The notes below the pieces were generated by a model. That model did no database searches. It was not told the DNA's origin and was given only the letters and a program-made list of their open reading frames with translations. Shown here piece after piece: positions 26,378 through 51,512 of a stretch of DNA of 64,000 nucleotides. Every line of letters begins with the position of its first letter. Positions within the stretch are counted from its first letter, which is position 1. Location of the stretch: contig CBDBHB010000008.1 of NCBI GenBank assembly GCA_965205505.1, forward strand, positions 864,001-928,000. Direction: 5' to 3'. Origin of the DNA: Acidobacteriota bacterium. Its GTDB lineage: Bacteria; Acidobacteriota; UBA890; WLXD01. The translations under genes were made by a program, and so were the position numbers.

Positions 26378-27217
26378 ATGTCACAGATCCTCCGAATCGG
26401 GCAAAGCGCCGACCCCGACGACGCGTTCATGGCATGGGGGCTGCGCGCCGAGTTGGAGCGACGCGGTCTCGACGCCGAGTTGGAGTTCGCCGACATCGAG
26501 TCGCTGAATCGAGCTACCGAGGATGGTCGCCTCGATCTCAGCGCGATTTCTGTGGGCGCCTACCCGACGTTCGCCGACCGCTATCGGATGTTGCGCTGCG
26601 GGGCCAGCTTCGGCGACGCGTACGGACCACTCGTGGTCGGTACCCGACCTCCGAGCGCGGGCACCGACACACCACTTTCAGGACTCACGGTGGCCATCCC
26701 CGGAGCCTTGACAACCGCCCGGATGCTTCTGCGCAACTACGCCGGCACGACCTATCAGGAGGTCGAGATGCGATTCGACGCCATCCTCGACGCGGTCGTC
26801 GCCGGTGAGGTGGACGCCGGACTGATCATTCACGAAGGGCAGTTGCTGTACGAGCGTATGGGGTTACACGCGCTCTTCGAACCGGCGATGGAGTGGGCCG
26901 AGCGCGAGCAGCTACCGCTACCGCTCGGAGTGGTAGCTATGCGCCGCGATCTTGCCGCACCGGTTCAGGAGGCGGTCGCCGACGCGTTTGCTCATAGCGT
27001 GCACGCCGCATTCCAGCATCCGGAGGCAGCCCTCGACTTCGCCGCAAGCTACGCGCGCGGTCTGGCCCGCGATGACCTCGAGGAGTATGTCTACCGATAC
27101 GTCAATGCGGCAACCCTCGACATGGGTGTAGCCGGGCAACGGGCCATCGAGCGTCTGTTCGAACACGCTCGAGCTGCCGGGCTTCTGGCCACGGTACCGG
27201 CGGTCGACCTCTACTAG
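26378..27217 (+). CDS. mqnD: 1,4-dihydroxy-6-naphthoate synthase
   Basis: SADPDDAFM, DIESLN, YGPLVV, AIPG.LTTA, IIHEGQL, PLPLG, YVN. Confidence 0.88.
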   Translation: MSQILRIGQSADPDDAFMAWGLRAELERRGLDAELEFADIESLNRATEDGRLDLSAISVGAYPTFADRYRMLRCGASFGDAYGPLVVGTRPPSAGTDTPLSGLTVAIPGALTTARMLLRNYAGTTYQEVEMRFDAILDAVVAGEVDAGLIIHEGQLLYERMGLHALFEPAMEWAEREQLPLPLGVVAMRRDLAAPVQEAVADAFAHSVHAAFQHPEAALDFAASYARGLARDDLEEYVYRYVNAATLDMGVAGQRAIERLFEHARAAGLLATVPAVDLY

Positions 27218-27319
27218 ATGAGATGAGAAGGCCAACCTCCTGAACGCAGTAGCCTGACGGCTCTGCAAACGTTTCTTCAAACGTAACGGGCTCGAAGCCC
27301 AAGGAGGTTGGCCGAGCAA

Positions 27320-28111
27320 GTGTAACGATTGGACTGGACGTAAGCGACCGGTACAGCCGTATGTGCGTGCTCGACAGTAAGGGCAGGGTGATGGAGGAAG
27401 GGCGGGTGAGGACGAGCCCGGAGGGGCTGGCGAGGCGGTTCGGGTGCGAGGAGCCCGCTCGAGTAGTGCTGGAGGTTGGAACGCGCTCGCCGTGGATGAG
27501 TGAGCAGTTGAAGCAACTGGGTCATGAGGTGCTGGTGGCTAACCCGAGGCGGCTGAAGCTGATCTATGGCGAGCACGACAAGACCGACCGGTTGGATGCC
27601 GAGCACCTGGCACGAGTGGGCAGAATGGACCCAAAGCTGCTTAAGACGGTGCAGCATCGAGGCAGACAAGCGCGAGCGGATCTAGCCGTGATTCGGAGCC
27701 GAGATGCTCTGGTAAAGAGGCACGCAGTTGGTGAGCCATGTGCGTGGTGCGGTCAAGTCGGCCGGTTGTCGTATTCCCAGGTGCTCGACGCCGGCGTTCG
27801 CGCGCACCGCGCCAGAGCACATACCGGAGCGGCTCAAGGGAGCGCTCGAGCCGGTGCTTGAAACGATCGCCATGCTGACGGGCAACATCCAGCAATACGA
27901 GCGTCAGATCGCAACGCCGAGATTGCCCCTATGGCGTATGTCGACGCTCCCAGCCTTCCGGGTGACGGCGGGACCGGCCGCCTCCGGCGTCGCGGCGCCT
28001 CGACGATACACCCAGCATCGCCCTCGTCTCGCCGTTGTGCTGCACCGACTGTGGCTGAGTGGAGACGAGTACGAACCGTTGCGCGCACCTGTAGAGGTTT
28101 CAGCAGCATGA
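27320..28111 (+). pseudogene. IS110 transposase, disrupted
   Basis: GLDVSD, LEVG, KTDRLDA (DEDD RuvC-like) present; start codon lost, frameshift near 27718, Tnp domain missing. Confidence 0.85.
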
Positions 28112-28357
28112 ACTAACCCGCAACCAGGAGGTCGGTAGGGCGACGCGACCCAACGGTTATCGATCTGACCGCCCGGTCCGGGCGACTGCGAAGGTCACTA
28201 CGAGCTTCGAGCTCGGCAGCTAGATTGCAGCGCCTCGAATCGGGACGGACCCCAGAATGCACCGGACGACCTGAATCCTCGTCCACCAGAGTGCGAATAG
28301 GAGCATGGCGTGCAGATCGATTCTTCGCTGGGCACCACATTGCCCTTGACCGAACTA
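28112..28357 (+). ncRNA. Candidate bridge/seek RNA region (right non-coding end of IS copy 1)
   Basis: Same sequence as 51167-51412 (apart from a 1-nt indel), including the target-matching segments. Confidence 0.65.
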
Positions 28358-28371
28358 GGCCTTCTCTTAGA

Positions 28372-28646
28372 AGTGGCCTGAGTCAGAGGTTCGTTGCATA
28401 TTGCTGGGCCGAGATAGGGGCAAGCTCAAGGCGCGATGAGAATGGCGATCCTCTCCGATCGTCGACGAATCGCAACGCCGAGATTGCCCCTATATCGTCC
28501 CAGCCTTCCGGGTGACGGCGGGACCGGCCGCCTCCGGCGTCGCGGCGCCTCGACGATACACCCAGCATCGCCCTCGTCGCCGCTCCTACAATTCGCCCCG
28601 GTCGCGCGCGCCACAAACGTCACCGTACTTATGATCAGGAGCACTA
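28372..28646. mobile_element. TA-flanked palindromic element with hybrid ends (C-like left, A right); left TA at 27215-27216 separated by the IS
   Basis: Left agtggcctgagtcagaggttcgttgcatat resembles the type C end; right ~130 nt nearly identical to 9978-10105. Confidence 0.88.
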
Positions 28647-29348
28647 GGGATCGCGTCGTGCGCTGTCGATCACCAGTGGAACCATCGGCATGTATCCCAA
28701 GGTCGTGCCAGGTTCCGGCGCTGTCGGCACCAGAGTGATCCGATCGACGGCCTCGATCCCTTCGACGACCAGCCCGAACACCGTGTACCCCGGGTGATCG
28801 GTCCCGGCGTGGTCGAGACTCGGGTTGTCGAGGTAGTTGATGAAGAACTGTGAAGTCGCGCTATCGATATCGCTTCCCCGACGGGCAAGCGCCACCGTAC
28901 CGCGCAGGTTCGCAAGGCCGTTGTGAGCCTCGCTGACAACCGGATCGTGCGTCGGCCGTGCATTCAGATCCGCGTCATAGCCACCTGCCTGGATGACGGG
29001 GAGGGCAAACGGCGGCTCGACGCGATGGAAGATTGTGCCGTCGTAGAACCCCTCGTCGACGTAGCGCAGGAAGTTGGCGACGCTCACCGGCGCTCGATCC
29101 TCGTACAAGGCCACCACGATGTCACCCACCGTGGTAGTCAACCGAACTCGCGGCGCATGGGCCGGCAGCGGAGCAGGATCGATCACCGGGCCGCGCTCCG
29201 GCAACGGGTCGTGTAGCCATGCATCGCGTCCACCGCACGCCGCGACGGCGAGCAAGACAGAAACGAGCCCCGCGCACAGCACGGCCGGCGACCTTAGCAC
29301 CGCCGCACGCCGACCGGGCAACCTCGGCTCAGTACGTCTCGACCACAT
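28644..29348 (-). CDS. Cyclophilin-type peptidyl-prolyl isomerase, lipoprotein
   Basis: Lipobox VAAC; APVSVANF..Y...GFYDGTIFHRV, SATSQFFIN, YTVFG; start uncertain. Confidence 0.9.
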   Translation of the reverse strand: MWSRRTEPRLPGRRAAVLRSPAVLCAGLVSVLLAVAACGGRDAWLHDPLPERGPVIDPAPLPAHAPRVRLTTTVGDIVVALYEDRAPVSVANFLRYVDEGFYDGTIFHRVEPPFALPVIQAGGYDADLNARPTHDPVVSEAHNGLANLRGTVALARRGSDIDSATSQFFINYLDNPSLDHAGTDHPGYTVFGLVVEGIEAVDRITLVPTAPEPGTTLGYMPMVPLVIDSARRDP

Positions 29349-30561
29349 CGTAGAGAGGAGTTTTCCGACGCGCCGGTGTGAACCCAGACTCACGGATGAG
29401 CTCGATGGTCTCTTCGGTGGTAGTTCTCACATCGTGCGCCGCTTCGTGCAACACGTTCTCCTCGATCAACGTACCACCGAAGTCGTCTGTCCCGAACTGG
29501 AGCGCCACCTGACCGGCCTTCTTGCCCTCTGAGAACCATGAGGCCTGTATGTGGCGAACGTTGTCGAGGTAGAGGCGCGCCAGAGCCAGGACCCGAAGGT
29601 ACACGGACGGCCCGACGCTATCGGGAAACTGGCGCTCCATCGGCGTGTTGACAGCCTTGTGCGACCACGGAATGAACGCCGTGAACCCCTGCCCGTCAGC
29701 TTCGTCCTGTACGCGGCGCAAACACTCCATGTGTTCGATAACGTCGGCCGGCTGCTCCGCATGCCCATACATCAGCGTGGCAGTCGTTCGCAACCCCTGC
29801 CGATGTGCAGCTCGATGGATTTCGAGCCACTCGAGGCTGCTCTGCTTCTTGGGAGAAATGCGAGCGCGCACCCGGTCAGAGAGCAGCTCGGCGCCGCCAC
29901 CTGGCATCGTCGTAAGGCCAGCGTCGCCCAGCGCACGAAAGATGTCGTCGTAGTCGAGTCCCGACACCTCGCGCATCTTGCCGATCTCCGGCGCCGAGAA
30001 CAGGTGCGGATGGACGTCGGGGAAGCGCTCCCGGAATGTTCTCGTCACGTCGACGTAATACGAAAACGGCAGCTCGTCGTACAACCCACCCTGAAGGAGC
30101 ACGGTCGTCGCGCCAAGCTCGACCGACCTTCCGATCGTATCCATGAGCTCATCGATCGTCTGCGCGTACCCCTCCTTGGCATCGCCGGGCTTACGGTAAA
30201 AGGCGCAGAACAGGCAATCGGCGTCGCAGAAGTTGGTGTAGTTCGGGTTGCTGTCGATCACGAACGTTACGCGGCGCTCTGGGTTGTGGCGATAACGCCA
30301 GACATTGGCCAACTCGCCAAGCTCCGCCAACGGTGCCTGGGTAAGCAACCACAGGCCTTCCTGCGGAGTGATGCGCGCGCCATCGTCGACTTTCTCGCGA
30401 ATCTCCTCGGATCGGACCGAGCGCGTGCCCTGGGTCAGCAGATCACCCAGCACGCAGCCTGGGGCGGCACCGGCGGCCGTGTTGCTGCCCAACTTAGCTG
30501 CCTTCCGACGTGAAGCGCGCATCACGTCCGAGGCCTTGGTAACCAGGCCGGGTGCGGTCAC
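29329..30561 (-). CDS. mqnC: Cyclic dehypoxanthinyl futalosine synthase (radical SAM)
   Basis: NYTNFCDADCLFCAFY, LLQGG, PGGGAE, HIQASW, DFGGTLIEENV; start uncertain (GTGA overlap at 30561). Confidence 0.9.
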   Translation of the reverse strand: MTAPGLVTKASDVMRASRRKAAKLGSNTAAGAAPGCVLGDLLTQGTRSVRSEEIREKVDDGARITPQEGLWLLTQAPLAELGELANVWRYRHNPERRVTFVIDSNPNYTNFCDADCLFCAFYRKPGDAKEGYAQTIDELMDTIGRSVELGATTVLLQGGLYDELPFSYYVDVTRTFRERFPDVHPHLFSAPEIGKMREVSGLDYDDIFRALGDAGLTTMPGGGAELLSDRVRARISPKKQSSLEWLEIHRAAHRQGLRTTATLMYGHAEQPADVIEHMECLRRVQDEADGQGFTAFIPWSHKAVNTPMERQFPDSVGPSVYLRVLALARLYLDNVRHIQASWFSEGKKAGQVALQFGTDDFGGTLIEENVLHEAAHDVRTTTEETIELIRESGFTPARRKTPLYDVVETY

Positions 30562-31416
30562 GTCGTGGTCTCCGAACGGTGCACCGGACGGCGCTCCTCC
30601 CACCAGGGTGATTCCGATAGCAGGACGCGAAAGCGTTCGATCGCTTCGGTCTCCGGCGCGCCGAGCCGATAAGTGAACCCCATCAGGTAGGCATAGGCCG
30701 CGACGGCATCGAGCCCAGCCTGACCGCCGTGTGCGACGGCAAGTGGATGTAGGTCGCGCAGGCTCTGATCGAGCGAGGTGGCCAGGCGATCGAGCAACTC
30801 GGCGCTCGCGGCCGACGTTGCCTCGCGGCGAACCACCCACCTCGCGAACACGAACGGCAGTCCCTGCCACCGTTTCCACGCGGCACTCAGATCAAGCGCC
30901 TGACTCCAGCGCCCACCGGTCAGGCTCATGGACACCGCACCGTAGTCGCGCGCGCCGGGTACGAGTCCTCCGGAGGCCGCCTCCTTGAGTGCTGCATCGC
31001 CAATCAACAGGACCGCTTCGTCGTCGTCGATAGCCTGTTCGCGGCGTACGTAGCGTGCAGCACCCACGTCGTAGCGTCGCTCCAGCAGCAAGTCGCAGCA
31101 GCGGATACGAGGTGCTGGTCTGTCCCGTTACCGCTACGCTCGCGCCGCAGAGTTGATCCGGTGATACGCGCGAGAACAGCAACACAGAATGGGCCGGCCC
31201 ATCGCACGCCACACAGAGGCTGCCCAGCGTCGTGAACTCCGGACTCCTGAAGGAATCGCACAGCGACATGATGCCGGCGTCAATCTCACCGCGGCGCGCT
31301 GCCTTTCCGAGCATACGTGGCGGCAAATCGATGAGATCAAAGGTGCCGTCATCAACGTGCTGATAGAAGGGGACAGAGTTCAGGTACGGGATCCGCGCAA
31401 CCCTCAGTGGGCTCAT
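30558..31416 (-). CDS. mqnA: Chorismate dehydratase, split by a 1-nt frameshift near 31090 (probable sequencing error)
   Basis: IPYLNSVPF, SVLLFS, TSTS in one frame; LLIGDAAL, DL...W...GLPFVFARW in the next; join at CGA CTT GCT GCT vs CGA CTG CTG. Confidence 0.85.
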
Positions 31417-32750
31417 GGGGAGCTCGCAACTCTCACTTCGGACTCGCCGGCGAGCGAGACGTCGGCAGGCACCTCCGGCGCGCCTTGGACGGTCGCCGGA
31501 GTCTGGGCCAGGCGTCGTACGTCGCGGGCGCTCTCTCCGAGCAGGTCCCAGGTATGCAGTCCATGGTGCTCGACGTCCACGGCCACCGGCTCGGCAACCT
31601 TGCCGCGCAACGCAATCGGTTCACCGTTGGCTATCTCCATCCGCTGCGACCAGTGGGCGGTGCGGTCCGGTGGCGGGTATACCGCGACGATCCGATACAT
31701 CGCATCGCGTTGCACCGGTAGGCGGCCGGCCTCGCGGATCATCTTCGTAAGCTTCTGCGTGGTCATGCCCGCCGGACTGCTCGCCAACGCCGCGTGAGCA
31801 ATGAGCTCCTCGCCAATTGTGCCGTCGAGGTCGTCAGCACCCCATTGCAGCGCCATCGACGCGGTTTCCGCTCCGAGCATCACCCAGTAGGCCTTGATGT
31901 GCGGGAAGTTATCGAGCAGTAGCCGAGCGGCAGCGATCGTTCTGAGGTCCTCGAGGGCAGACGCCGGACGGTCGACGATGTTGGAGTACCCGAGCTGGAA
32001 GGCCAGGGGTATGAAGCTGAAGAATCCACCGGTACGGTCCTGCAGTGCGCGCAGCAGGAGCATGTGGTTGATGCGCTCTTCATACGTCTCAATATGGCCG
32101 TATAGCAGCGTGGCGTTGGTGCGAATCCCCCGACCGTGCGCGATCTCGTGGATCTCGAGCCAGCGCTCGTGTCCAATCTTGCCGCGGTACATCTCCCGGC
32201 GAACGCGCTCCGAGAACACCTCGGCGCCTCCCCCGGGCATGGCTACCAGGCCGGCTTCTTGAAGACGGTCGAACACCTCCTCTACGGAGATCTTCTCGCG
32301 CCGCGCGAAGAAGTCGATCTCGACAGCAGTGTAGGCCTTGATCTGGGCCTCGGGGTTCGCTTCGCGAATGGTCTCTAACACCTCGAGGTAACGCTCGAAC
32401 GGCCAATTCGGATGAAGCCCACCGACGATATGCACCTCGCGAATGGGCTCCTGGACCCGCTCGCGGATCTGCGCCAACGTCATCTCGTAGGCGTGATCGT
32501 CGTTCTTCTTGGCGGCGAAGTCGCAGAACTTACAGCTCAGCACGCAAACGTTCGTTGGGTTTATCTGTCGGTTGAGCACGAAGCCCACGAACGCACCGGT
32601 ACGACGCTCTTTTTCCGCGTTGGCAAGTCGCCCGAGACCCACGACATCGTTGGTCGACAGCATCGCCATTCCGTCATCGGAGTCGAGACGCTCACGCGCG
32701 GCGACTTTCTCAATGACGCGTTGAAGGCGGGGGTCGCTGGATCGTCTCAT
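31413..32750 (-). CDS. mqnE: Aminofutalosine synthase (radical SAM)
   Basis: INPTNVCVLSCKFC, EVHIVGG, AYTAVEI, HIKAYWVM, GADDLDGT. Confidence 0.92.
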   Translation of the reverse strand: MRRSSDPRLQRVIEKVAARERLDSDDGMAMLSTNDVVGLGRLANAEKERRTGAFVGFVLNRQINPTNVCVLSCKFCDFAAKKNDDHAYEMTLAQIRERVQEPIREVHIVGGLHPNWPFERYLEVLETIREANPEAQIKAYTAVEIDFFARREKISVEEVFDRLQEAGLVAMPGGGAEVFSERVRREMYRGKIGHERWLEIHEIAHGRGIRTNATLLYGHIETYEERINHMLLLRALQDRTGGFFSFIPLAFQLGYSNIVDRPASALEDLRTIAAARLLLDNFPHIKAYWVMLGAETASMALQWGADDLDGTIGEELIAHAALASSPAGMTTQKLTKMIREAGRLPVQRDAMYRIVAVYPPPDRTAHWSQRMEIANGEPIALRGKVAEPVAVDVEHHGLHTWDLLGESARDVRRLAQTPATVQGAPEVPADVSLAGESEVRVASSP

Positions 32751-32775
32751 CGTTCCGGTCGGCTCCGAGGGAAGC

Positions 32776-34659
32776 CTAGTCTAGCCCGTATTCTGCCCAC
32801 CTGCGGCTCACCTTGTCGAGTAGCTCGTCCGGCATCACGAGCCGATCCGGGTAGCCTGGCTTGAAGGTGGCGTCGATACCCATCGTCCCGTAGCAGGTAG
32901 TCCATGGACCGCGACATTCGGTGCGCTCGAAGACAACGTCGCGCGCGCAATCGAAGCGGGTGAACAGGCCCCAGAGCCGCTGGTCGGGATCGTCCAGGTC
33001 GACGTCGTCGCTGAGCGCGGCAACAACCCGAACCGGGCCCAGATCGACATCGACGAGCCGCTCGACGACAGCGCGACCCTCGGCGCTCACCTGTACCAGC
33101 ATGAGCGAATCCTCGAGCACCCGGTACGCCGTTACACGCCTGTCAATGGCACGCGGATCGGCGATACGATTGCCACGACCCGACCGCTCGTCGGCCGAGC
33201 CGGCCGAATATCGAGTCGGATCGCGTAACACAGCGCTCATTTCTGGCGCATCGGCGGCGCCGCCCAGCGCCGCTCGGACAGCCTCATGATCGGCTCCGGG
33301 CGCACCGTGCAGCGCTTCCGTGGGGCCGCTGGTGGCATCGACAATCATCTTGCTACCGAGGTTCATTCGGTAGCTGGTGAAGTCGAGCGTGTCGAGCGGC
33401 ACGCCGGGCAGGAGCAGGAAGTCTCTCTCGGGCTCGAAGTTGTCACGCATGGCGCGCAGGACGGCGCCGAAATCGCGTACCGGTACCCCCTCATCGACAA
33501 GCACAAGGCACTTCGTCAGCGCCAGTTGCCCAGTACCCATCAGTGCCAGGGCGGTCTTCACCGCCTCCTTGTAGAAGCGCTGACGCACAGAGACCACCAG
33601 CAGGTTGTGGAACCCGGCTTCGAAGTAGGCCCACAGATCGACGATCTCATGGTGAATGAGCTTGATGAGCGGCCCGAGGATGTCCTGGGTGGCGTTACCG
33701 ATGAACTTATCCTCCTGGGGCGGCAACCCGACGACCGCCGACAGGTAAATGGGCCGGCGACGGCGGGTGACGCGCCGCACCTTGAACACCGGAAACGGCG
33801 CCGCGTGCGAGTAGTGGCCGAAGTGATCGCCGAACGGCCCTTCGAGCCGCCGCTCGTCGGGCACCACCTCGCCCTCGAGAACGATCTCGGCGTTGGCCGG
33901 CACCTCCAGGTCGATGCTCGAGCACCGTATCATCGGGCACGGCGCCCCTCGCAGGATGCCGGAGAAGGCGATCTCATCCATGCCCTCCGGCAAGGCGGCG
34001 ACCGCCGACAGCAATAGCGCCGGGTCGACCCCGATTACCACTGCTACCGGAAGCGACCGGCCCAACTCTTCGGCACGCGCGTAGTGGAACCCGCCGCCCT
34101 TGTTGATTTGCCAGTGCATGCCAGTGACGTCGTTATCGTAAACCTGCAGACGATAGACGCCCATGTTGCGCTCGCCGGTCAGCGGGTCGCGGGTAATCAC
34201 CAGGCCGAATGTGATGAAGGGGCCGCCGTCCTCAGGCCAGCAAGTCTGCACCGGAAACTGGTGCAGGTCGGGCGCCTCGACCACCTCCTGGCAAGGCCCT
34301 CGGCGGACGCGCCGCGTCCGCATTGGCAGCAGCTGCATCAAGTTGGAGCGCAGCCGCCAGACCGCCTTCGGCGACGGTGGGTTGAGCCCCTCGGCAGTAG
34401 CCAACAGCATCGCGCCGATCTCGTCGGCCGGCCGCCCGAGAGCGAGCTGGATGCGTCGCTCACTCCCCAGCGAGTTGATCAGCAACGGGTGCTTGGCGTC
34501 GTTGACGTTCTCGAACAGCAACGCGGGGCCGCCGTCCTTGACCACCCGGTCAGCAATGGCGGCGATCTCGAGATGCGGGTCAACGCTCGCCTGGACGCGC
34601 CGCAGCTCACCGGCGCGCTCGAGTGCGTCGACGAAACCGCGTAGATCCGTGAAGCTCAC
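32776..34659 (-). CDS. ubiD: UbiD-family prFMN decarboxylase (menaquinone, MqnL-like)
   Basis: GGPALLF, WPEDGGPFIT, EGPFGDHFG, MGIDAT.K. Confidence 0.92.
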   Translation of the reverse strand: MSFTDLRGFVDALERAGELRRVQASVDPHLEIAAIADRVVKDGGPALLFENVNDAKHPLLINSLGSERRIQLALGRPADEIGAMLLATAEGLNPPSPKAVWRLRSNLMQLLPMRTRRVRRGPCQEVVEAPDLHQFPVQTCWPEDGGPFITFGLVITRDPLTGERNMGVYRLQVYDNDVTGMHWQINKGGGFHYARAEELGRSLPVAVVIGVDPALLLSAVAALPEGMDEIAFSGILRGAPCPMIRCSSIDLEVPANAEIVLEGEVVPDERRLEGPFGDHFGHYSHAAPFPVFKVRRVTRRRRPIYLSAVVGLPPQEDKFIGNATQDILGPLIKLIHHEIVDLWAYFEAGFHNLLVVSVRQRFYKEAVKTALALMGTGQLALTKCLVLVDEGVPVRDFGAVLRAMRDNFEPERDFLLLPGVPLDTLDFTSYRMNLGSKMIVDATSGPTEALHGAPGADHEAVRAALGGAADAPEMSAVLRDPTRYSAGSADERSGRGNRIADPRAIDRRVTAYRVLEDSLMLVQVSAEGRAVVERLVDVDLGPVRVVAALSDDVDLDDPDQRLWGLFTRFDCARDVVFERTECRGPWTTCYGTMGIDATFKPGYPDRLVMPDELLDKVSRRWAEYGLD

Positions 34660-35237: not shown

Positions 35238-35343
35238 GGGCCTGACTCTCCGCCGTTTGGAAGGTGCCGTATCAAGCGTTTGACGTCCTGTCCAACAAGT
35301 GACGGCGGCCGCTGTAACCAGATCCGCCAGAGTTCTTCAGCAC

Positions 35344-35893
35344 TAGTGGCCTGTAACAGATGATCGTTGCATATCGTGGTGGCGAAATGGGCTCGGATGC
35401 CAGGCGCAACGACGAGACGATGTTGGCCCATCTTGGAGGAGAAGCAACGCCGCAGACGGGCCCATTTCGCCGCCATCCTGCGGACAGATGGGCAGTTGTG
35501 GGCGATATCGGCGTTGCGCCTCGTCAACGATGCCCCAGCAGGTCGTGATGGAAGTGTGATGGGTCTGGTTACGCCACCAAGGGCGCGGATCCAAGGCGCC
35601 GCGTCGCAGGCGATGCCCGTGCGCATCGTCTAGGAGCGGCAACGCCGGAGACGCGCCCTTGGCGGCGTAACCTGTAGGGCAAGTGGGAGTCACGGGCGAT
35701 GGCGGCGTCTCTCCTCCTCGACGATGGCTCCAGCATCGCCTCATCGTCGATCCTTGTCCTAGCCCGTGAGTCCCATTTGCCAGACCCACCACACTTCCAT
35801 CACGGCCTGCTAGCATCGCCCTCCTCCCCGCGCCTTGATCTCACCCGCAAATCCCATCTGCGATATGCAACGATCATCTGTTACAGGCCACTA
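35344..35893. mobile_element. TA-flanked palindromic element, type C/C ends, carrying a nested type D element
   Basis: Perfect 33-nt TIRs tagtggcctgtaacagatgatcgttgcatatcg / cgatatgcaacgatcatctgttacaggccacta. Confidence 0.92.
35536..35812. mobile_element. Nested palindromic element, type D/D ends, two arms
   Basis: cagcaggtcgtgatggaagtgtg ... cacacttccatcacggcctgcta; ends match those of 17891-18074. Confidence 0.85.
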
Positions 35894-35899
35894 GATCCC

Positions 35900-36784: not shown

Positions 36785-36805
36785 GTGCCTCCGCTACGGA
36801 CGAGC

Positions 36806-40710: not shown

Positions 40711-40719
40711 CAGGCCGCG

Positions 40720-42771: not shown

Positions 42772-42808
42772 TCACCGAGCCTGCCACACCGCGACCTGCT
42801 AGAGACCC

Positions 42809-43381
42809 ATGGAATCGATTGGCGCCGTGCTCGACCCGTCTCACCGTCGACGCATCATCCTGATCACCAGCGTCTGCGTGCTGGTCATCGACCAGATCAC
42901 CAAGACGCTATGCTGGATGAACATTCCCCTGCACGCGCGGGTACCGGTGTTCGGCAACGTGCTCTCGCTCACGCATGTACACAATCGCGGGATGGCCTTC
43001 GGCTTCTTCAACACCGGACAGGCCGAGTGGGTTCGCTGGGTGTTGGTAGCGGTGGCGATCGCGGCGGTTGGGATCATCTGGTCGTACGCTCGTCACGAGA
43101 GCACGCAACGGTCTGTGGTCGTTGCCTTCGGGGCGATTCTTGGCGGCGCCATGGGGAACCTGGTCGATCGGTTGCTTTACGGTTACGTCGTCGACTTCGT
43201 GCTTCTGCACTGGAACCGGCACGAGTTCCCCGCTTTCAACGCCGCCGACTCAGCCATTACCATGGGTGGTATCGCTCTGTTCCTGGCACTGGCCCGGGAT
43301 ACCGAGGAACCAGCAGAACCCGAGCACTCCCCGAGCGACGTCGTAACACCGGCCGATGAGCCGGCGAGTGACGACGCCTGA
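42809..43381 (+). CDS. lspA: Lipoprotein signal peptidase II
   Basis: DQITK, NRGMAFG, GGAMGNLVDR, VVDF, FNAADSAI. Confidence 0.96.
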   Translation: MESIGAVLDPSHRRRIILITSVCVLVIDQITKTLCWMNIPLHARVPVFGNVLSLTHVHNRGMAFGFFNTGQAEWVRWVLVAVAIAAVGIIWSYARHESTQRSVVVAFGAILGGAMGNLVDRLLYGYVVDFVLLHWNRHEFPAFNAADSAITMGGIALFLALARDTEEPAEPEHSPSDVVTPADEPASDDA

Positions 43382-43396
43382 GGTCACGAGGTTTCG

Positions 43397-44296: not shown

Positions 44297-45291
44297 GTCC
44301 ACCCGATCTACGTCCCGAGCCGACGACGATACGGCTCGAGATCGGCGACCAGGAGGCCGGCGAGAGACTCGACCGATTGCTGGCACGCCGGCTCGCCGAC
44401 GTGTCGCGTTCTCGTGTGCGTCGTCTGATTGATGCAGGCGCTGTGCGCATCGGAGACAAGCCCGCCCGCAAGGCCTCCATCCCGGTTAGCTCGGGACAGA
44501 TCATCCACGTCATCCTCGCGCCACGTCCGCCAGACTGGGACGTCACCCCCGAGGATATCCCGCTCGATGTCCTGTACGAGGACGCCTCGCTAGCGGTGAT
44601 CAACAAGCCGGCCGGCATGGTCGTGCACCCGGCTCCTGGCCATCCCACCGGCACGCTGGTGCACGCGCTGCTGCACCGCTATCAACGACGCCTCTCGGCG
44701 CTGACCGACACCGCCAGGCCAGGCATCGTCCACCGCCTCGATCGCGGTACCAGCGGTTTGATCGTCGTCGCAATGACCGACATGGCGCATCAGCGAATCG
44801 CCGACCAGTTCGCCAACCGCACAGTGAGCAAAGAGTACCTGGCCCTGGTTTTTGGGCGGCCGAAGACACGCAGCGGCACGATCGACACACCGCTGGGACG
44901 TGACCGATCCGATCGCAAGAAGATCTCCGCCAACACCGCCCAGGCGCGCGACGCCCTCACGCGCTGGAGCTTCGAAGAGGATTTTCCGGGACCGGGTATC
45001 ACACTGCTACGCGCGTTTCCGCATACCGGCCGTACGCACCAGGTACGTGCGCACCTGGCGCACATCCACCATCCGCTGGTCGGTGATTCGCTGTACTCCG
45101 GGAAACAATGGAAGGGGATCCAGGACATCACAGTCCGGCGGGCGATCGCTGGCTTCGGGCGACCCGCGCTTCACGCTCACAGGCTTGCGTTCGAACACCC
45201 CGACGACGGTCGACGGATGGAGTTCGAGCTGGCACCGCCCGACGACATGAGCACCCTACTCACCACCCTGAGGCAGGCTCGGCCGTCCTGA
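44293..45291 (+). CDS. rluD: RluA/RluD-family pseudouridine synthase, probable CTG start
   Basis: GERLDRLL S4 motif upstream of the first TTG; NKPAGMVVHP, HRLDRGTSG, TGRTHQVR, ALHA. Confidence 0.9.
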   Translation: MSPPDLRPEPTTIRLEIGDQEAGERLDRLLARRLADVSRSRVRRLIDAGAVRIGDKPARKASIPVSSGQIIHVILAPRPPDWDVTPEDIPLDVLYEDASLAVINKPAGMVVHPAPGHPTGTLVHALLHRYQRRLSALTDTARPGIVHRLDRGTSGLIVVAMTDMAHQRIADQFANRTVSKEYLALVFGRPKTRSGTIDTPLGRDRSDRKKISANTAQARDALTRWSFEEDFPGPGITLLRAFPHTGRTHQVRAHLAHIHHPLVGDSLYSGKQWKGIQDITVRRAIAGFGRPALHAHRLAFEHPDDGRRMEFELAPPDDMSTLLTTLRQARPS

Positions 45292-45477
45292 GGCCAGATC
45301 GGAACGCTCCCCTGCTACTCCAACGAACGCACAAAGATCACCTTGACCATGGTACCATCCAGCGCTTTCGCGCAGTCTTCGCGCCGACCGGTTCTTCGTC
45401 GGCCCGCACGGCCCCCCCCTTGATCCCGCTGCGTGCCTGTCGGCGGCGCTACCCTGAAAGAAGGAGCGAGGGTAGGC

Positions 45478-47562
45478 ATGGCCAAGTTCGCGAGCGAGGA
45501 TCTCCGGAACGTAGGTGTTATCGGGCACGATGACACCGGTAAGACGACCCTGGTGTCGGCGTGCCTTTACACCACTGGAGCTGTAAGCCGGCTCGGGCGG
45601 GTCGAGGATGGTCATTCGACCACCGACTTCGACGAGGAGGAGATCGACCGCCAGATCTCGATCCAGGTCGGCCTCGCCTATGCGCAGTGGCGTGGCTCCC
45701 AGATCACTTTCGTGGACACTCCCGGATACGCCGTATTTCGGGCCGAGACCAAGGGCGCGATGCGAGTGGTGGACGGCGCGCTGGTCACCGTCGACGCCCT
45801 ATCGGGCGCCGAGGTCATGACCGAGAAGGTGTGGGAGTACATGCGCGACCTCAAGGTCCCGGGCGTCATCGTCATCAACCGCCTGGATCGCGAGAACGGC
45901 TCGTTCGAGCGTCCCGTCGAATCGTGCGTCGACTCCTTCGGGCGCGAGGTCGTGGCTTTGCAGCTACCGATCGGCGCGGCCGACAAATTCAGAGGCGTAG
46001 TCGACTTACTGGACATGAAGGCCTACACCTACGCCGTCGATGGCGACGGCAAGGGCACCGTAGGCGACGTTCCGGACGACATGAAAGACGCCGCCGAGGC
46101 GGCGCGCGAGGCGCTCGTGGAGATGGTCGCCGAGAGCAACGAAGAGCTCATGGAAATCTACTTCGAGGAGGGCGGTCTCACCAGAGACCAGCTCACCGAA
46201 GGTGTACGCCAGGCGGTATTCGCGATGAGCTTGTTCCCGGTACTGTGTATGTCGGCAGCGCACAATATCGGCACGGATCGGGTGCTTGATGCATGCCTCG
46301 ACTTCCTTCCATCGCCTACCGATCGCCGACAGCTGCTGGCACGTGACGAGGGCGAGGACGTGTGGATTGACGCCGAGGCAGACGCCCCATTCGCCGGACT
46401 CGTCTTCAAGACGGTCTCCGACGCGTTTGCCGGTCGCATCAACTATGTCAAGGCGTTCACCGGCGGCGTCAACGCCGACGCTACCGTCGTCAACGCGCGC
46501 ACCGGATCGAACGAGCGACTCTCCAACATGTCCTTGGTGCAGGGCAAGCAGCTCGAACCCCTCGCCGCGGCGGTCGCCGGGCAAATCTTCGCGGTCACCA
46601 AGCTCAAGGACACCGGAACGTCGGACACCTTGCGCGACAAGCCGAGCAGGGCGGTGATCGAGCACGTCACGTTCCCGAAGCCGGCGATCTCGTTCGCCCT
46701 GGAGCCCGAGAGCAAGGGCGACGAGGAGAAGATCAGCAACGCCATTGCGCGCCTCAGAGACGAGGACCCGACGCTCGGCGTGGAGCGTGACCCGCAGACC
46801 CACGAGCTGTTGCTCTCGGGCATTGGACAGCTGCACGTCGAGGTAACCCTGGCGAAGATGAAACGTCGCTATGGGGTCAACGCCAAGCTGCATCCGCCCA
46901 AGGTTCCGTACCGCGAGACCATCCGCGGCACCGCCCACGCCGAAGGGCGTCACAAGAAGCAGTCTGGTGGTCGCGGACAGTTCGGCGTCGCCAAGATCAC
47001 TGTCGCGCCACTTCCCGCCGGGAGTGGCTTCCAGTTCGAAGACAAAATCTTCGGCGGTTCGATCTCGCAGTCATATCGTCCGGCGGTCGAGAAGGGCATC
47101 ATCGAGGCATCGGCTCGCGGCGTGTTAGCCGGATACCCGATGGTCGACTTCAAGGTCGAGCTGACTGACGGTAAGGAGCACGCTGTCGACTCATCGGAGA
47201 TGGCGTTCAAGATTGCCGGCTCAATCGCCTTCAAAGACGCTTTACCGCGGGCGAGGCCGGTGCTGCTCGAACCCATCATGAAACTGGAGATCAACGTGCC
47301 CGACGATTCTATGGGCGACGTGATGGGGGACCTGAATTCCCGCCGCGGGCGCGTGCAGGGCATGGATCCCCGCAAGAACCGGCAGATCATCCACGCAGAG
47401 GCGCCGCTGGCGGAGCTGCTCAGCTACGCTGTGGAGCTCAACTCGCTCACCGGCGGGCGCGGCACGTACACGATGGAGTTCTCCCGCTACGATGACGTGC
47501 CGCCGAACGTCGCGCAGAAGGTGATCGAAGCGAGCAAGCGAGCTGCGGATGCAGCGAACTAG
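45478..47562 (+). CDS. fusA: Elongation factor G paralogue (EF-G2-like)
   Basis: GHDDTGKT, RQISI, DTPGY, NRLD, KKQSGGRGQFG, DSSEMAF; not in an str operon. Confidence 0.9.
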   Translation: MAKFASEDLRNVGVIGHDDTGKTTLVSACLYTTGAVSRLGRVEDGHSTTDFDEEEIDRQISIQVGLAYAQWRGSQITFVDTPGYAVFRAETKGAMRVVDGALVTVDALSGAEVMTEKVWEYMRDLKVPGVIVINRLDRENGSFERPVESCVDSFGREVVALQLPIGAADKFRGVVDLLDMKAYTYAVDGDGKGTVGDVPDDMKDAAEAAREALVEMVAESNEELMEIYFEEGGLTRDQLTEGVRQAVFAMSLFPVLCMSAAHNIGTDRVLDACLDFLPSPTDRRQLLARDEGEDVWIDAEADAPFAGLVFKTVSDAFAGRINYVKAFTGGVNADATVVNARTGSNERLSNMSLVQGKQLEPLAAAVAGQIFAVTKLKDTGTSDTLRDKPSRAVIEHVTFPKPAISFALEPESKGDEEKISNAIARLRDEDPTLGVERDPQTHELLLSGIGQLHVEVTLAKMKRRYGVNAKLHPPKVPYRETIRGTAHAEGRHKKQSGGRGQFGVAKITVAPLPAGSGFQFEDKIFGGSISQSYRPAVEKGIIEASARGVLAGYPMVDFKVELTDGKEHAVDSSEMAFKIAGSIAFKDALPRARPVLLEPIMKLEINVPDDSMGDVMGDLNSRRGRVQGMDPRKNRQIIHAEAPLAELLSYAVELNSLTGGRGTYTMEFSRYDDVPPNVAQKVIEASKRAADAAN

Positions 47563-48130
47563 TGCTCCTCTCGCACACGCCGTCCGATTAGGCGCCGTGC
47601 TGGCGCCCGCGATCGCGATGCTGTTGCCAGCCTACGTCGCCAGCGCGCAGCTGGTGCGCGAGCGTGCCGAGTCCACCGCCATGGTCGCCACGAGCCCGGT
47701 GGCGCGCGGCGGAACGCTGCGGGCGGCGATGGAGATCCGCGTCGCCGAGGGGTTCCATATCAACGCAAACCCGGCGTCGGAGGACTTCCTGATCGCCACC
47801 GAGGTAAACCTGGCGGCGGCGGACGGATTCGCGATCAGCGAGGTCTTCTATCCACCCGCCCACGAGCTCACGTTCGGCTTCTGGGACGGACCGCTACGAG
47901 TGTGGGAAGGGTCCGTCGTGGCCGGCGTGGTGCTCGAGGTTGCCGATACGGCGGCGCTCGGATTCCGCGACCTGGAGTTCGTTGTCCTGTATCAGGCTTG
48001 CAACGACGCAGCTTGTTTCGCGCCGGCCGAGACTACCTACAAGCTGGCCGTGGATGTCGTTGAACAAGGATCCGCGACGCGCGCGCTGCAATCGCCGTTG
48101 CTGAGTCGAGCTCGGTTCGAGCGGCAGTAA
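47549..48130 (+). CDS. Secreted DsbD N-terminal-like domain protein
   Basis: Signal peptide; GFHINAN, YQACNDAACFAP. Confidence 0.8.
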   Translation: MQRTSAPLAHAVRLGAVLAPAIAMLLPAYVASAQLVRERAESTAMVATSPVARGGTLRAAMEIRVAEGFHINANPASEDFLIATEVNLAAADGFAISEVFYPPAHELTFGFWDGPLRVWEGSVVAGVVLEVADTAALGFRDLEFVVLYQACNDAACFAPAETTYKLAVDVVEQGSATRALQSPLLSRARFERQ

Positions 48131-48132
48131 GG

Positions 48133-48780
48133 CTACGGGCTCTGCGAGGTGGCCTCGAACGGTCGCTGCCCACGTGGCACGTGGGTGCGGAACACGTAAT
48201 CCCACAGCGGCGAGCTCACCCCGTACCAGCGCTCCTCGGCGGAGAAGTGGTGCTGCAGATGGCGTTTGCGTAACCCGACCCCGATGCGGTTCTTCGGTGT
48301 CACGAAATGAGTATAGAAATGGATGTAGTCGTAACAGAGGTAACCAATCGTAAAGCCGCCCCAGAACGGAAACAGCGTCGGAGTACCGAGAATCCAGTAG
48401 CCGACGCTCATCAGAACCAGGTATAGCGGTACTGCCATCATCGGCGGAGCCAATAGCCGATCCCACTCTTGCACGTCGTGGTGCAGCCGGTGCAGTGGGT
48501 AAAGGAACTCTTTGAGCCGCGCGTGCTGTGGCTCCCAGTGGAAGACCCAGCGATGCAGGCAATACTCGGTGAATGTCCACGCGAAGGCACCGAAGATCGA
48601 CAGGGCGATGACGGTTCCGACCGACAGATCGCGCAAATACCCCAGATAAATCAGGGCCAACGCGACCGGCCCCCAAATGGCGATCGGTACCGCCGGGTGG
48701 ACGCGAGTAAGCGACTCGAGGAAGTCGTTCTCGTAGAGCCGTACCTCGCGCTCACGAGTGACCCGTGCTTTCTTCACCAC
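48133..48780 (-). CDS. Fatty acid hydroxylase / sterol desaturase family
   Basis: His boxes HRWVFH, HRLHH, HFYTH, HLQHH; LE.LTR.HP; YGVSSPLWD; start uncertain. Confidence 0.88.
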   Translation of the reverse strand: MVKKARVTREREVRLYENDFLESLTRVHPAVPIAIWGPVALALIYLGYLRDLSVGTVIALSIFGAFAWTFTEYCLHRWVFHWEPQHARLKEFLYPLHRLHHDVQEWDRLLAPPMMAVPLYLVLMSVGYWILGTPTLFPFWGGFTIGYLCYDYIHFYTHFVTPKNRIGVGLRKRHLQHHFSAEERWYGVSSPLWDYVFRTHVPRGQRPFEATSQSP

Positions 48781-48870
48781 AGCTCTTGCCTCACTAGGTC
48801 GCCGCAACCTGGGCGGCAACTCGTCCCGATCTTCCAGTGTAGAACGTAACCCGTGAAAGAGAATAGATCC

Positions 48871-49176
48871 TCAAAGCCTCACCCGCACCGCCGCCCCCTC
48901 GATAACGACCTCGTAGGTTCGCAGCCAATCGCCGGGAGAGTTGAGGCACTCGCCACTGGCCACGTCGAAGCGCCAGCCGTGCCACGGGCAGCTGACGGTA
49001 TGACCGTCGAGATCACCATCACCGACCGGACCGCCGCGATGACAACAGGTGTTCTCAATGGCGTGGAACACTCCGCCAACGTTGAACAACGCGATCTCTT
49101 TTTCGCCGATCTCGATCGTTTTCCCGGTACCTTCCACGAGGTCAGTAACGCCTGCGACCGTCTTCAGCTCACTCAA
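48871..49176 (-). CDS. Rieske [2Fe-2S] ferredoxin
   Basis: C.H...CPWHGWRFDV. Confidence 0.9.
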   Translation of the reverse strand: MSELKTVAGVTDLVEGTGKTIEIGEKEIALFNVGGVFHAIENTCCHRGGPVGDGDLDGHTVSCPWHGWRFDVASGECLNSPGDWLRTYEVVIEGAAVRVRL

Positions 49177-49271
49177 CTTTGGGCCTCCGAAGCCCGCCCG
49201 ATGACGGGAACCGCGCCCTTGTCGACACCTCATGCGACGCGAGGAGGCTTATTCTGGCACGCTCTCTAATC

Positions 49272-50024
49272 GTGGGCAAAGAACTCGATCGTGACAGCCT
49301 CGCTCCCGACCGCGTCGAGGCTGCCGGCGGATCGTTTACCAACGCCGTGCAGCGGATGTTCGATGGCCTCGCGCCGCGCTACGACACGTTCAACCGCTGG
49401 GCCAGCCTCGGACTGGACACCGCGTGGCGGCGCGCTGCGATCCGCCAACTCGGGGTGCCGGCCGGCGGTTCTGTGCTCGACATCGCCACCGGAACCGGCG
49501 ACCTTGCACTCGCCTCGGCCATCGCCGGCCATCGCGCGGTGGGCGTCGACTTCGCCCGCGAGATGATCAACGCCGCCCGCGCCAAGCGATCGCGAGCCGA
49601 CCTCCCGGTGCCGTTCCACGTCGCCAGTGCCGAAGCCCTTCCCTACGATGAAGCCAGTTTCGACGGAGCCCTTTCCGGTTTCGCGATGCGCAACGTCCGC
49701 CCCATCCTGTATTCCGTGCTCGCCGAGGCACACCGTGTGCTCAAACCCGGCGGGCGCTTCGTGATCCTCGAGTTTTGCGACCCTCCATTTGCTCATGTCC
49801 GCTGGGGGCACCGCCTCTACACGCGAGCCGTCGTCCCCAACATCGGTCGCTGGCTAACTGGCACCTCCGTCCCGTTCGACTACCTCAACCGCAGCATCGA
49901 TGCCTGGGAGAGCCCGGAGTCATTCGCCGCTATCCTCACCCGCGCCGGCTTCATCGAGGTCGCGTATCGCCGCCTCACCCTGGGTACGGTCGCCCTCCAC
50001 TGGGGCGCCAAGCCACGCAGTTAG
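49272..50024 (+). CDS. ubiE: UbiE/MenG demethylmenaquinone methyltransferase
   Basis: MFD.LAPRYD..N, LDIATGTGDL, F.MRNV, RVLKPGGR..ILEF, YL..SI. Confidence 0.9.
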   Translation: MGKELDRDSLAPDRVEAAGGSFTNAVQRMFDGLAPRYDTFNRWASLGLDTAWRRAAIRQLGVPAGGSVLDIATGTGDLALASAIAGHRAVGVDFAREMINAARAKRSRADLPVPFHVASAEALPYDEASFDGALSGFAMRNVRPILYSVLAEAHRVLKPGGRFVILEFCDPPFAHVRWGHRLYTRAVVPNIGRWLTGTSVPFDYLNRSIDAWESPESFAAILTRAGFIEVAYRRLTLGTVALHWGAKPRS

Positions 50025-50121
50025 ATGAGATGAGAAGGCCAACCTCCTGAACGCAGTAGCCTGACGGCTCTGCAAACGTTTCTTCAAACGTAACGGGCTC
50101 GAAGCCCAAGGAGGTTGGCCG

Positions 50122-51166
50122 ATGATAAGTGTAACGATTGGACTGGACGTAAGCGACCGGTACAGCCGTATGTGCGTGCTCGACAGTAAGGGCAGGGTGA
50201 TGGAGGAAGGGCGGGTGAGGACGAGCCCGGAGGGGCTGGCGAGGCGGTTCGGGTGCGAGGAGCCCGCTCGAGTTAGTGCTGGAGGTTGGAACGCACTCGC
50301 CGTGGATGAGTGAGCAGTTGAAGCAACTGGGTCATGAGGTGCTGGTGGCTAACCCGAGGCGGCTGAAGCTGATCTATGGCGAGCACGGACCGACCGGTTG
50401 GATGCCGAGCACCTGGCACGAGTGGGCAGAATGGACCCAAAGCTGCTTAAGACGGTGCAGCATCGAGGCAGACAAGCGCGAGCGGATCTAGCCGTGATTC
50501 GGAGCCGAGATGCTCTGGTAAAGAGCCGCACGCAGTTGGTGAGCCATGTGCGTGGTGCGGTCAAGTCGGCCGGTTGTCGTATTCCCAGGTGCTCGACGCC
50601 GGCGTTCGCGCGCACCGCGCCAGAGCACATACCGGAGCGGCTCAAGGGAGCGCTCGAGCCGGTGCTTGAAACGATCGCCATGCTGACGGGCAACATCCAG
50701 CAATACGAGCGTCAGATCGTGCAGCTGTGCCAGGGGCGATACCCGGAGACACAGCAGCTCCAGCAAGTGGCCGGGGTCGGAGCTCTGACCGCACTGGCGT
50801 ATGTGCTGACGCTCGAGGAGCCGGAACGGTTCAATACCTCCAGAGCCGTGGGCCCGTACCTGGGACTGAGACCGAAGAAACGGCAGTCGGGGGACAAGGA
50901 CCCTGCGCTACGAATAACCAAGGCGGGCGACAAAATGCTCCGACGCCTGTTGGTGGGGCTCGGCGCATTACATCCTGGGCCCCTTCGGGCCCAATACTGA
51001 GCTCAGACGCTGGGGGCTCAAGCTGGCCGGACGCGGTGGTCCTCATGGCAACAAAAAGGCAGCAGTTGCTGTCGCCCGTAAGCTCGCCGTTGTGCTGCAC
51101 CGACTGTGGCTGAGTGGAGACGAGTACGAACCGTTGCGCGCACCTGTAGAGGTTTCAGCAGCATGA
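50122..51166 (+). pseudogene. IS110 transposase/recombinase with three apparent frameshifts (~50273, ~50387, ~50956)
   Basis: GGAGG RBS; GLDVSD, LEVG, D..DA; GVG, YLGL.P...QSG, ITKAG; frameshifts may be sequencing errors. Confidence 0.85.
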
Positions 51167-51412
51167 ACTAACCCGCAACCAGGAGGTCGGTAGGGCGACG
51201 CGACCCAACGGTTATCGATCTGACCGCCCGGTCCGGGCGACTGCGAAGGTCACTACGAGCTTCGAGCTCGGCAGCTAGATTGCAGCGCCTCGAATCGGGA
51301 CGGACCCCAGAATGCACCGGACGACCTGAATCCTCGTCCACCAGAGTGCGAATAGGAGCATGGCGTGCAGATCGATTCTTCGCTGGGCACCACATTGCCC
51401 TTGACCGAACTA
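51167..51412 (+). ncRNA. Candidate bridge/seek RNA region of IS copy 2
   Basis: Target-matching segments 51247-51255 and 51271-51278 flank the hairpin cgagct-tcg-agctcg; donor-like segments 51333-51338 and 51352-51358. Confidence 0.7.
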
Positions 51413-51426
51413 GGCCTTCTCATAGA

Positions 51427-51512
51427 AGTGGCCTGAGTCAGGACACCTGGCGGAGCGGTGAGACAGCCGGTTTCCGTAGCCGGACCCACCAGAGTTCTTC
51501 AGCATCCTGCTA
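51427..51512. repeat. Short TA-flanked element with hybrid ends (C-like left, type E right)
   Basis: agtggcctgagtcag ... gacccaccagagttcttcagcatcctgcta; type E end also at 35320-35342 and inverted at 52063-52094. Confidence 0.75.

Follow-up and report, generated by a model that had tools for sequence, protein, structure and literature searches.

An IS1111-family insertion sequence at the tips of miniature inverted-repeat elements in an Acidobacteriota genome, and its predicted guide RNA

Two copies of one insertion sequence at two stop codons

The stretch of DNA analysed here (hereafter the window; 64,000 nucleotides, positions 864001-928000 of contig C8, CBDBHB010000008.1, in the 5.98-Mb, nine-contig assembly GCA_965205505.1 of an Acidobacteriota bacterium) carries, in direct orientation, two copies of the same insertion sequence (IS), designated A (27216-28371) and B (50023-51426), which abut the ends of a menaquinone biosynthesis gene of the mqn type and of a ubiE-like methyltransferase gene. 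This IS, a member of the IS1111 family, has recently multiplied to about 31 copies in one genome, and is very probably directed by a predicted seekRNA/bridge RNA to a short site at the tip of transposable elements of the miniature inverted-repeat kind (MITEs). The features on which the argument rests are the following, in window coordinates.

26273-27217, plus strand: menaquinone gene (futalosine route, MqnA/MqnD family; Pfam PF02621 VitK2_biosynth, 9.6e-61), with a TAG stop that straddles the left junction of copy A
27216-28371, plus strand: IS copy A, 1156 bp, dead and internally rearranged (alignment; blastn of the replaced segment)
28184-28231, plus strand: predicted target loop of copy A, same as in copy B
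28372-28386, plus strand: target remnant AGTGGCCTGAGTCAG, the tip of a ~290-bp MITE after the mqn gene
35344-35893: unoccupied target, a 272-bp MITE with a nested 277-bp MITE (35537-35813), 550 bp in all, both termini CTAGTGGCCTGTAACAG
49179-50024, plus strand: UbiE/COQ5-type methyltransferase gene (PF01209 UbiE, 9e-45), with a TAG stop that straddles the left junction of copy B
50023-51426, plus strand: IS copy B, 1404 bp, full length, transposase gene frameshifted (alignment, blastn, check of open reading frames)
50030-50040, plus strand: left subterminal inverted repeat ATGAGAAGGCC of copy B, 7 nt inside the IS end
50123-51166, plus strand: transposase gene, broken in copy B; the intact form encodes 348 aa with PF01548, PF02371 and GL-P----SG
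51239-51286, plus strand: predicted seekRNA/bridge-RNA target loop of copy B (sequence comparison, alignment)
51352-51358, plus strand: conserved block ATAGGAG, candidate donor-side guide (covariation in relatives)
51413-51423, plus strand: right subterminal inverted repeat GGCCTTCTCAT of copy B, 3 nt inside the IS end
51427-51441, plus strand: target remnant AGTGGCCTGAGTCAG, which is the tip of a short element resembling a MITE, beyond the ubiE-like gene

Copies A and B share both ends, beginning with AGATGAG^ATGAGAAGGCC and finishing with GGCCTTCTC(A/T)T^AGA, where the caret separates the inverted repeat from the terminal extension. Each is preceded by ..cT, the T being nucleotide 27215 for A and 50022 for B, and each is followed by the remnant AGTGGCCTGAGTCAG. 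The TAG stops of the upstream open reading frames (ORFs), 26273-27217 and 49179-50024, are composed of this host T and the first AG of the IS. A preliminary description drawn from the window alone had reported these flanks, the retention of both stop codons and the presence of repeats 7 nt and 3 nt inside the IS ends; direct reading agrees on each point, an 11-bp inverted repeat being found at those distances in both copies.

The intact IS is 1406 bp long, with 100 nt of non-coding sequence upstream of the transposase gene versus 260 nt downstream. Its 348-aa translation combines a DEDD (RuvC-like) N-terminal domain (PF01548, 1.4e-17, residues 6-149) with an IS116/IS110/IS902 C-terminal domain (PF02371, 5.4e-17, residues 212-282), and contains the motif GL-P----SG in the form GLRPKKRQSG. 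The inverted repeats ATGAGAAGGCC and GGCCTTCTCAT match at 11/11 positions, with one mismatch (CTCTT) in nine copies, copy A among them. Extensions of 7 nt on the left and 3 nt on the right, one of the three placements that an AG shared with the right flank allows, are read from the empty site cTAGTGGCCT and the junctions cT^AGATGAG.. and ..CATAGA^AGTGGCCT (here and below, the caret marks the junction). Subterminal repeats of 11-13 bp, perfect or nearly so, 7/3-bp extensions, a transposase of 330-350 aa with GL-P----S(t)G and a longer non-coding region downstream of the gene are marks of the IS1111 family (PMC11187229). Judged by its sequence, the IS thus belongs to the IS1111 family (IS110 superfamily, DEDD recombinase), as the preliminary description had proposed; every sequence feature that we tested was present. 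At least 7,996 relatives of the transposase were retrieved at E <= 1e-40, the nearest 92% identical and located on metagenome contigs, and the only informative name among them was 'IS110 family transposase'.

Both window copies are non-functional, A through loss of part of its gene and B through a frameshift, neither of which the preliminary description had mentioned. In copy A, ~116 nt of MITE sequence (27912-28027) stand in place of ~363 nt of the transposase gene, and their source was traced by blastn to a MITE 560 nt downstream (91% match to C8:892469-892578, window 28469-28578); this rearrangement could be a gene-conversion-like or template-switch event, or an assembly error. Seven public runs carry the window stretch as contigs, and the contigs of four of them (X1, X8, X11 and X13) were compared with it. 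Relative to the majority form in these contigs, in which ACAA is present after 50387 and one base fewer is found at 50273 and at 50955, copy B harbors three small indels, which are therefore specific to this copy. The unique flanks in the contigs of the four runs all ran into the IS, and one X13 contig joint skipped 50733-51248 (depth 4, side 28).

Genome-wide insertion sites and the repeats that carry them

Searching the genome with blastn yielded 31 copies of the IS at 98-100% identity, of which 27 are full length, two are truncated on the left, one is cut by a contig end and the last is copy A. The sequence that follows the IS is AGTGGCCT in 30/31 copies and AGTGACCT in the remaining one, that is, AGTG(G/A)CCT in 31/31, two extra matches of the right-flank search motif having been left out of the counts as unrelated sequence. 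On the other side, a motif search revealed T at -1 in 29/30 left ends and C at -2 in 28/30, positions -3 to -8 being mixed, with 28 distinct sequences among the 29 left flanks listed. The 31 copies all had one and the same orientation with respect to the site. Conservation of the right flank, starting at +9, reached only as far as the neighbouring repeat extends, and the four right flanks (of 31) that lie outside repeats diverged after +8. The selected target comprises only ~10 bp, C-T^AGTGGCCT. The flanks of the two window copies are those of the whole set, a recurrence well above what chance would give, and no copy displayed the unrelated flanks that the preliminary description had named as a sign against it. 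Its statement that there is no target duplication stands insofar as none exists beyond the AG common to the IS start and the right flank in 31/31 insertions; since these first two bases are the same, the cut is ambiguous and may be T^AG, TA^G or TAG^.

An intact transposase ORF (348 aa) was found in 10/27 full-length copies. Among the defective ones, one 4-nt deletion pattern (ORFs of 244 and 122 aa) recurred at nine loci and another pattern (161 and 140 aa) at four. Since each of these two patterns is found at several loci, defective copies have evidently been multiplied, the protein and RNA of intact copies probably acting in trans.

Unoccupied TAGTGGCCT sites number 135 in the genome, compared to roughly 40 expected from base composition (an estimate). 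Most of them are tips of a 272-bp MITE; others are the tips of related families, or short palindromes composed of two tips. The 272-bp element is small, devoid of ORFs, bounded by 31-bp terminal inverted repeats and a short flanking duplication, and present in many copies of uniform length, as expected of a MITE: 149 repeat ends were counted, 110 of which have CTA in front, and among the 43 plus/minus pairs of ends less than 6 kb apart, 27 span 270-279 bp. Its flanking duplication may be read as TA or as CTAG, the two being indistinguishable. The 10-bp target of the IS corresponds to the C-TA of the flank followed by the 7-8 bases with which the terminal inverted repeat begins, and the IS occupies 15/149 of these end repeats, on either arm, leaving MITEs that are otherwise complete 272-bp units with an intact far end. 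The free termini that the preliminary description had noticed near 35343 and 35894 are real; they lie at 35344 and, inverted, at 35893, and are the ends of the 550-bp nested MITE. What had been called a palindromic repeat is the terminal inverted repeat of CTA-flanked MITEs, together with its short palindromic derivatives. The second MITE nested at 35537-35813 is 277 bp long, is CTAG-flanked and has an end repeat beginning with CAGCAGGCCGTGATGGAAGTGTG; ends of this second family also form the left flank of several IS copies. No autonomous parent of the 272-bp MITE was found in this genome, in which no pair of end repeats lies more than 616 bp apart within 6 kb.

The 272-bp MITE family was detected in 20/26 genomes of the class, including 4/4 other genomes of the genus, and the IS was not found in those four. 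The repeat being widespread and the IS not found in its other genus carriers, the MITE is, on this comparison of genomes, the older of the two, and the IS a newcomer that landed in it. The IS was likewise not found at the orthologous mqn and ubiE loci of the genus. Nor did the orthologous loci of the four genus genomes offer an exact empty site for the same MITE; their intergenic regions differ, and other small elements are present.

The CTAG/TA flanks and the link with stop codons hold for the MITEs examined. Across the genome, an open frame 150 codons long or longer ends with the TAG at 11/29 left junctions of the IS versus 38/135 empty sites. In the closest genus genome (locus L078, G004; compared with window 50022-51540), the ubiE-like ORF is 10 codons longer and ends at TGA; the TAG of the gene in the window is supplied by a ~95-nt element (TAGTGGCCTGAGTCAGG...CTGCTA, TA-flanked), so that the stop 'preserved' by the IS itself came with a repeat. 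At the end of the mqn gene of another species of the genus (L085, G002), the exact same stop codon carries another small element, different from the one here but similar at its tip (TAGTGGCCCC...ACAGGCCACT). The mqn-gene stop codon is a recurrent landing site for small repeats. A solitary remnant of the left end of the IS (cTAG + ATGAGATGAGAAGG, ~17 nt), followed by unrelated sequence, was observed ~3 kb upstream of the window start (C8:861043), at the TAG closing a 503-codon open frame.

Inverted segmental duplications that have identical flanks, and IS copies at their borders, were seen on contig C6 (~416-424 kb and 513-520 kb) and at the ends of contigs C6 and C7; the copies at C6:423089 and C6:513834 have the same left flank and different right flanks. 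These duplications are either IS-associated rearrangements or assembly redundancy.

A predicted guide RNA and its covariation in related elements

Within the non-coding region downstream of the transposase gene, the segment GACUGCGA-AGGUCACUA-CGAGCUUCGAGCUCG-GCAG-CU-AGAU-UGCAGC (51239-51286) reads as an internal loop, with an outer stem on one side of it and a hairpin on the other. The order in copy B is outer stem, putative top-strand (T) guide AGGTCACTA (51247-51255), hairpin, putative bottom-strand (B) guide CT + AGAT (51275-51280) and outer stem, and this 48-nt loop is identical in 31/31 copies. As RNA, the 9-nt T guide AGGUCACUA would pair with the top strand of TAGTGGCCT through eight Watson-Crick pairs and one G-U pair, and the B guide CUAGAU, comprising a 2-nt guide CU and AGAU, equals the left junction c-T-AGAT and thereby matches the bottom strand. 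The complementarity to the target ends at +8, which is also the limit of flank conservation at sites outside repeats. The exact complement of the guide is not the common TAGTGGCCT but TAGTGACCT, the flank of the single deviant copy (C9:69994); TAGTGACCT occurs at 43 sites genome-wide, only two of which have the preceding C, and one further site is the one occupied by the IS at C9:69994. An RNA guide had not been foreseen in the preliminary description, and the one predicted here would account for the specificity.

On the donor side, the block ATAGGAG (51352-51358) matches the right IS end plus core (ATAGA+AG, with one G-U). In related elements this block, AU(A/G)GAA(G/A)C across the clade, covaries with the right end CAT(A/G)GA and the core AG/AA in 13/13 relatives compared, and it is likely to be a donor-side guide. 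A corresponding guide for the left end, complementary to AGATGAG, was not convincingly found by eye in the RNAalifold alignment.

A search of genome contigs with the transposase returned one distant match only (L003, 43% identity), which was not used, and a class-level genome search gave nothing beyond a relative in genome G011; the clade emerged from a phylum-level search, which revealed IS at 46-57% amino acid identity in 19 further genomes. The G011 relative (one interrupted copy, 62-68% amino acid identity) agrees with our IS in its ends and in the frame of the loop, and its guides, CGGACUCUA and GAGU+AGAU, match its own flanks ..GAGT^AGAGTCCG perfectly on both sides. Seventeen loci with recognisable ends were analysed. 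Set aside before counting were L052, L058, L059, L060, L064 and L070 (ends not found or repeats implausible), L062, L074 (flanks the same as those of L051) and L054 (from an unpublished genome); same-genome copies of one IS were collapsed, and L053 was dropped as a near-duplicate of L055, leading to a set of 12 IS with different targets. The shared architecture consists of the subterminal repeat and a loop with ACUGCG, T guide, variable hairpin, B guide, AGAU and GCAGC, in which short T guides accompany long B guides and vice versa. RNAalifold, applied to 13 sequences, recovered the outer stem and the base of the inner hairpin, 5/17 pairs being kept through changes on both sides.

In the 12 IS, the T guide scored on average 7.9 against its own flank versus 4.3 against the flanks of the others, and the anchored B guide 4.0 versus 0.5. 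The observed guide-flank sums were reached by 0/100,000 permutations, a figure that overstates independence because the relatives are kin. The own flank was the strict best for 8/12 T guides and 7/12 B guides. Furthermore, every relative listed has one and the same dinucleotide at the start of the IS and at the start of its right flank, AA in the L063, L072, L073 and L076 types and AG otherwise, an identity that we read from these ends as the signature of a 2-nt crossover core.

Several observations weigh against guidance by such an RNA and have to be set beside the kinship just mentioned. The own flank was not the row maximum for 4/12 T guides and 5/12 B guides, and L067 was dropped ahead of the 12-IS count for not fitting the architecture. 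The left guide of our IS is very short (2 nt plus core), which places nearly all the specificity on one 9-nt guide that forms a G-U pair with the common target. Repeat-type sites seem to be occupied more often than other CTAGTGGCCT sites (~27/103 versus ~3/36, an estimate); this excess could be explained by selection against insertions into genes, or by a structural preference outside the RNA model. No family of Rfam 15 matched the intact copy at E <= 1, and none of the seven public runs with the stretch is on record as RNA, the guide RNA being thus a prediction. Finally, the circle junction ..CATAGAAGATGAGATG.. or its T variant had 0 matches in the assembly, where rare forms would escape, and the contigs of the four runs, which drop rare forms, contained neither a circle junction nor the 50022-51427 joint of an empty site.

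Elsewhere in the window, a repeat finder reported a long array of 15-nt tandem repeats at 56383-57016 (26 overlapping register copies in two blocks), units of which, such as GGCTCGGCTGCAACG, recur in the minus-strand reading of C8:920618-920663 (window 56618-56663); the array is probably a repetitive coding region.

Alternative explanations, proposed mechanism and known systems

Three other explanations of the insertion pattern were weighed. In the first, the transposase alone would recognise the hairpin or palindromic DNA of the repeat tips, an older idea for IS that target repetitive extragenic palindromes (REPs), and the complementarity of the loop would be incidental. Palindromic tips or the tips of end repeats do make up most of the targets, occupation of the same 10-mer seems to be more frequent at repeat-type sites than at others, and no RNA run covers the stretch. 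Yet solitary, non-palindromic sites are used as well, and the guides covary with the flanks both in 12 IS with unrelated targets and in the pair formed by our IS and its G011 relative. In four IS1111-family members, moreover, a seekRNA was found by experiment to be essential (PMC11187229), and we regard recognition by protein alone as quite unlikely. In the second, the order of events would be reversed, with MITEs inserting beside resident IS, or homologous recombination between repeats spreading units of IS plus flank. In its favor, MITEs are mobile elements with CTAG as insertion site, the left IS junction contains a CTAG, and some IS copies border segmental duplications; against this, the MITE always lies on the right, and no CTAG is available at that end of the IS, occupied MITEs keep their full length and far end, the MITE family is old and widespread when, of the genomes searched, this one alone has the IS, and the 28 distinct left flanks exclude recombination with homology on both sides, which makes this order of events highly improbable. 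The third, that the right flank belongs to a longer IS ending in AGTGGCCT... or in a whole MITE arm and lacking any target specificity, can draw on the 27/31 right flanks that continue well past +8 into related repeat sequence, but is barely conceivable given flanks that derive from different repeat families and from both arms of the 272-bp MITE, the four insertions outside repeats, the divergence after +8, the 135 empty sites, the MITEs without IS in 4/4 other genus genomes, a 3-nt right extension that agrees with the IS1111 family rule, and a G011 relative that ends at the same CATAGA and then runs into a different flank matching its own guide, all in keeping with the preliminary view that this flank is not part of the IS.

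Guidance to the MITE tip by an RNA made from the IS itself accordingly remains the explanation that we favor. The family features, the specificity for site and orientation, the empty sites, the guide-target complementarity with its covariation and the greater age of the MITE can all be read from the DNA; from these we infer that the RNA is made and bound, that a circular intermediate forms with a promoter at its junction, and that crossover takes place inside AG. The 260-nt 3' non-coding region would be transcribed into a seekRNA/bridge RNA, and the IS would excise as a circle with abutted ends, whose junction would bring a -35-like TTGACC of the right end to GAAGAT, in what we read as a possible junction promoter. 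The transposase would bind the RNA from the 3' region, the loop of which would pair with both strands of cT^AGTGGCCT, the top strand through the 9-nt guide and the bottom strand through CU+AGAU. The circular IS would then be joined to the 10-bp site by crossover in the 2-nt AG core, resulting in insertion at the same base, in one orientation and without target duplication. The target is abundant because it consists of the flanking C-TA and the tip of old MITE families that insert at CTAG; as this CTAG is often a TAG stop, the IS lands next to genes without disrupting them, the stop being rebuilt from its own AG.

A wider reading, which as a whole we put forward tentatively, as possible rather than probable, extends this picture. 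The guide may be tuned to one short sequence common to several unrelated-looking MITE families that insert at CTAG; three layers may be superimposed, namely, a gene's stop codon, a MITE in it and the IS at the tip of the MITE; the guide may be nearly one-sided (9 nt on the right versus 2 nt on the left), with a G-U pair tolerated at the main target; and the IS, by parting the MITE end repeat from its flank, may immobilise the MITE. If true, natural seekRNAs can give up specificity for target abundance, and the spread of defective copies (nine loci and four loci) would show that recombinase and RNA act in trans.

The finding leaves the understanding of the mechanism unchanged; the mechanism itself is not new, and the IS is a clean further example of a known targeting habit. 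What it adds is a natural, well-populated example of an RNA-guided IS1111/IS110 element from a little-studied, apparently uncultured lineage, with 31 insertions and 135 empty sites, together with a clade of 13 members whose guides and flanks vary in concert. The target loop and donor-side block of this clade could serve to read targets from sequence for thousands of related elements. The insertions also account for a peculiarity of the local annotation, namely, genes ending in a TAG of which one base comes from the host and two come from the IS.

Among known systems, IS4321 and IS5075 reportedly target transposon end repeats, inserting, in work attributed to Partridge and Hall (2003), inside the 38-bp repeats of large Tn21-family transposons. 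The target here, by comparison, is made up of two flanking bases and the extreme terminal bases of small, non-autonomous MITEs. The bridge RNA of IS621 and the IS110 group, described in 2024 by Durrant et al. and Hiraizumi et al., is said to combine with a DEDD recombinase, to carry target and donor loops and to work through a shared 2-nt core, which in IS621 is reportedly CT; the AG found here is the complement of CT. In our IS, unlike in IS621/IS110, the putative RNA region lies downstream of the gene, and only one donor-side guide, that for the right end, was identified. In the IS110 group the RNA is upstream of the gene and the order of the guides is reversed (PMC11187229).

Close parallels in RNA design are the IS1111-family elements ISEc11, ISPa11, ISKpn4 and ISPst6. 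In a seekRNA of this type the match to the top strand lies 5' of the match to the bottom strand, and the two overlap where the IS inserts (Siddiquee et al. 2024, PMC11187229), and the 3' non-coding region of our IS likewise contains a top-strand and then a bottom-strand match overlapping at that point. The left-hand match is unusually short here (2 nt plus core) compared to those seekRNAs, and the RNA, its ends and its requirement for transposition were established by experiment for the four elements (PMC11187229), whereas here they are predicted. Natural retargeting through the guides only, as between our IS and its G011 relative, is known from ISEc11 and ISXne4 (PMC11187229). In line with the preliminary description, members of the family are known to target repeats, ISPa11 inserting in REPs, a multi-copy target like that of our IS, and ISKpn4 and ISPst6 in attC sites (PMC11187229). 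ISPpu9 of Pseudomonas putida, an IS110-family element with a small RNA gene downstream of its transposase gene, is also inserted in REPs, and is modular and forms several kinds of circles (PMC12288879); the target in our case is instead a MITE tip.

In our literature search, which did not include ISfinder, no description of an IS110/IS1111 element located at the outer tip of MITE end repeats came up, and searches by term within PMC3189936 and PMC2680597 gave nothing on IS110-family insertion into MITEs. The pairing of IS and repeat, which the preliminary description had called new, is so in its particulars and not in kind, for IS1111 of Coxiella burnetii is present in ~20 copies, 20/21 of which in strain RSA 493 lie within the MITE QMITE2 (PMC5896051). 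In both systems an IS1111-family IS resides in copies of a MITE that is older than the insertions and of which unoccupied copies exist. In Coxiella, however, IS1111 enters the GTAG REP palindrome and leaves 10-20 bp of QMITE2 5' of the IS (PMC5896051), whereas the insertion here separates the flanking T from the start of the end repeat, at the extreme tip, in MITE families and a host phylum that are unrelated to those of Coxiella.

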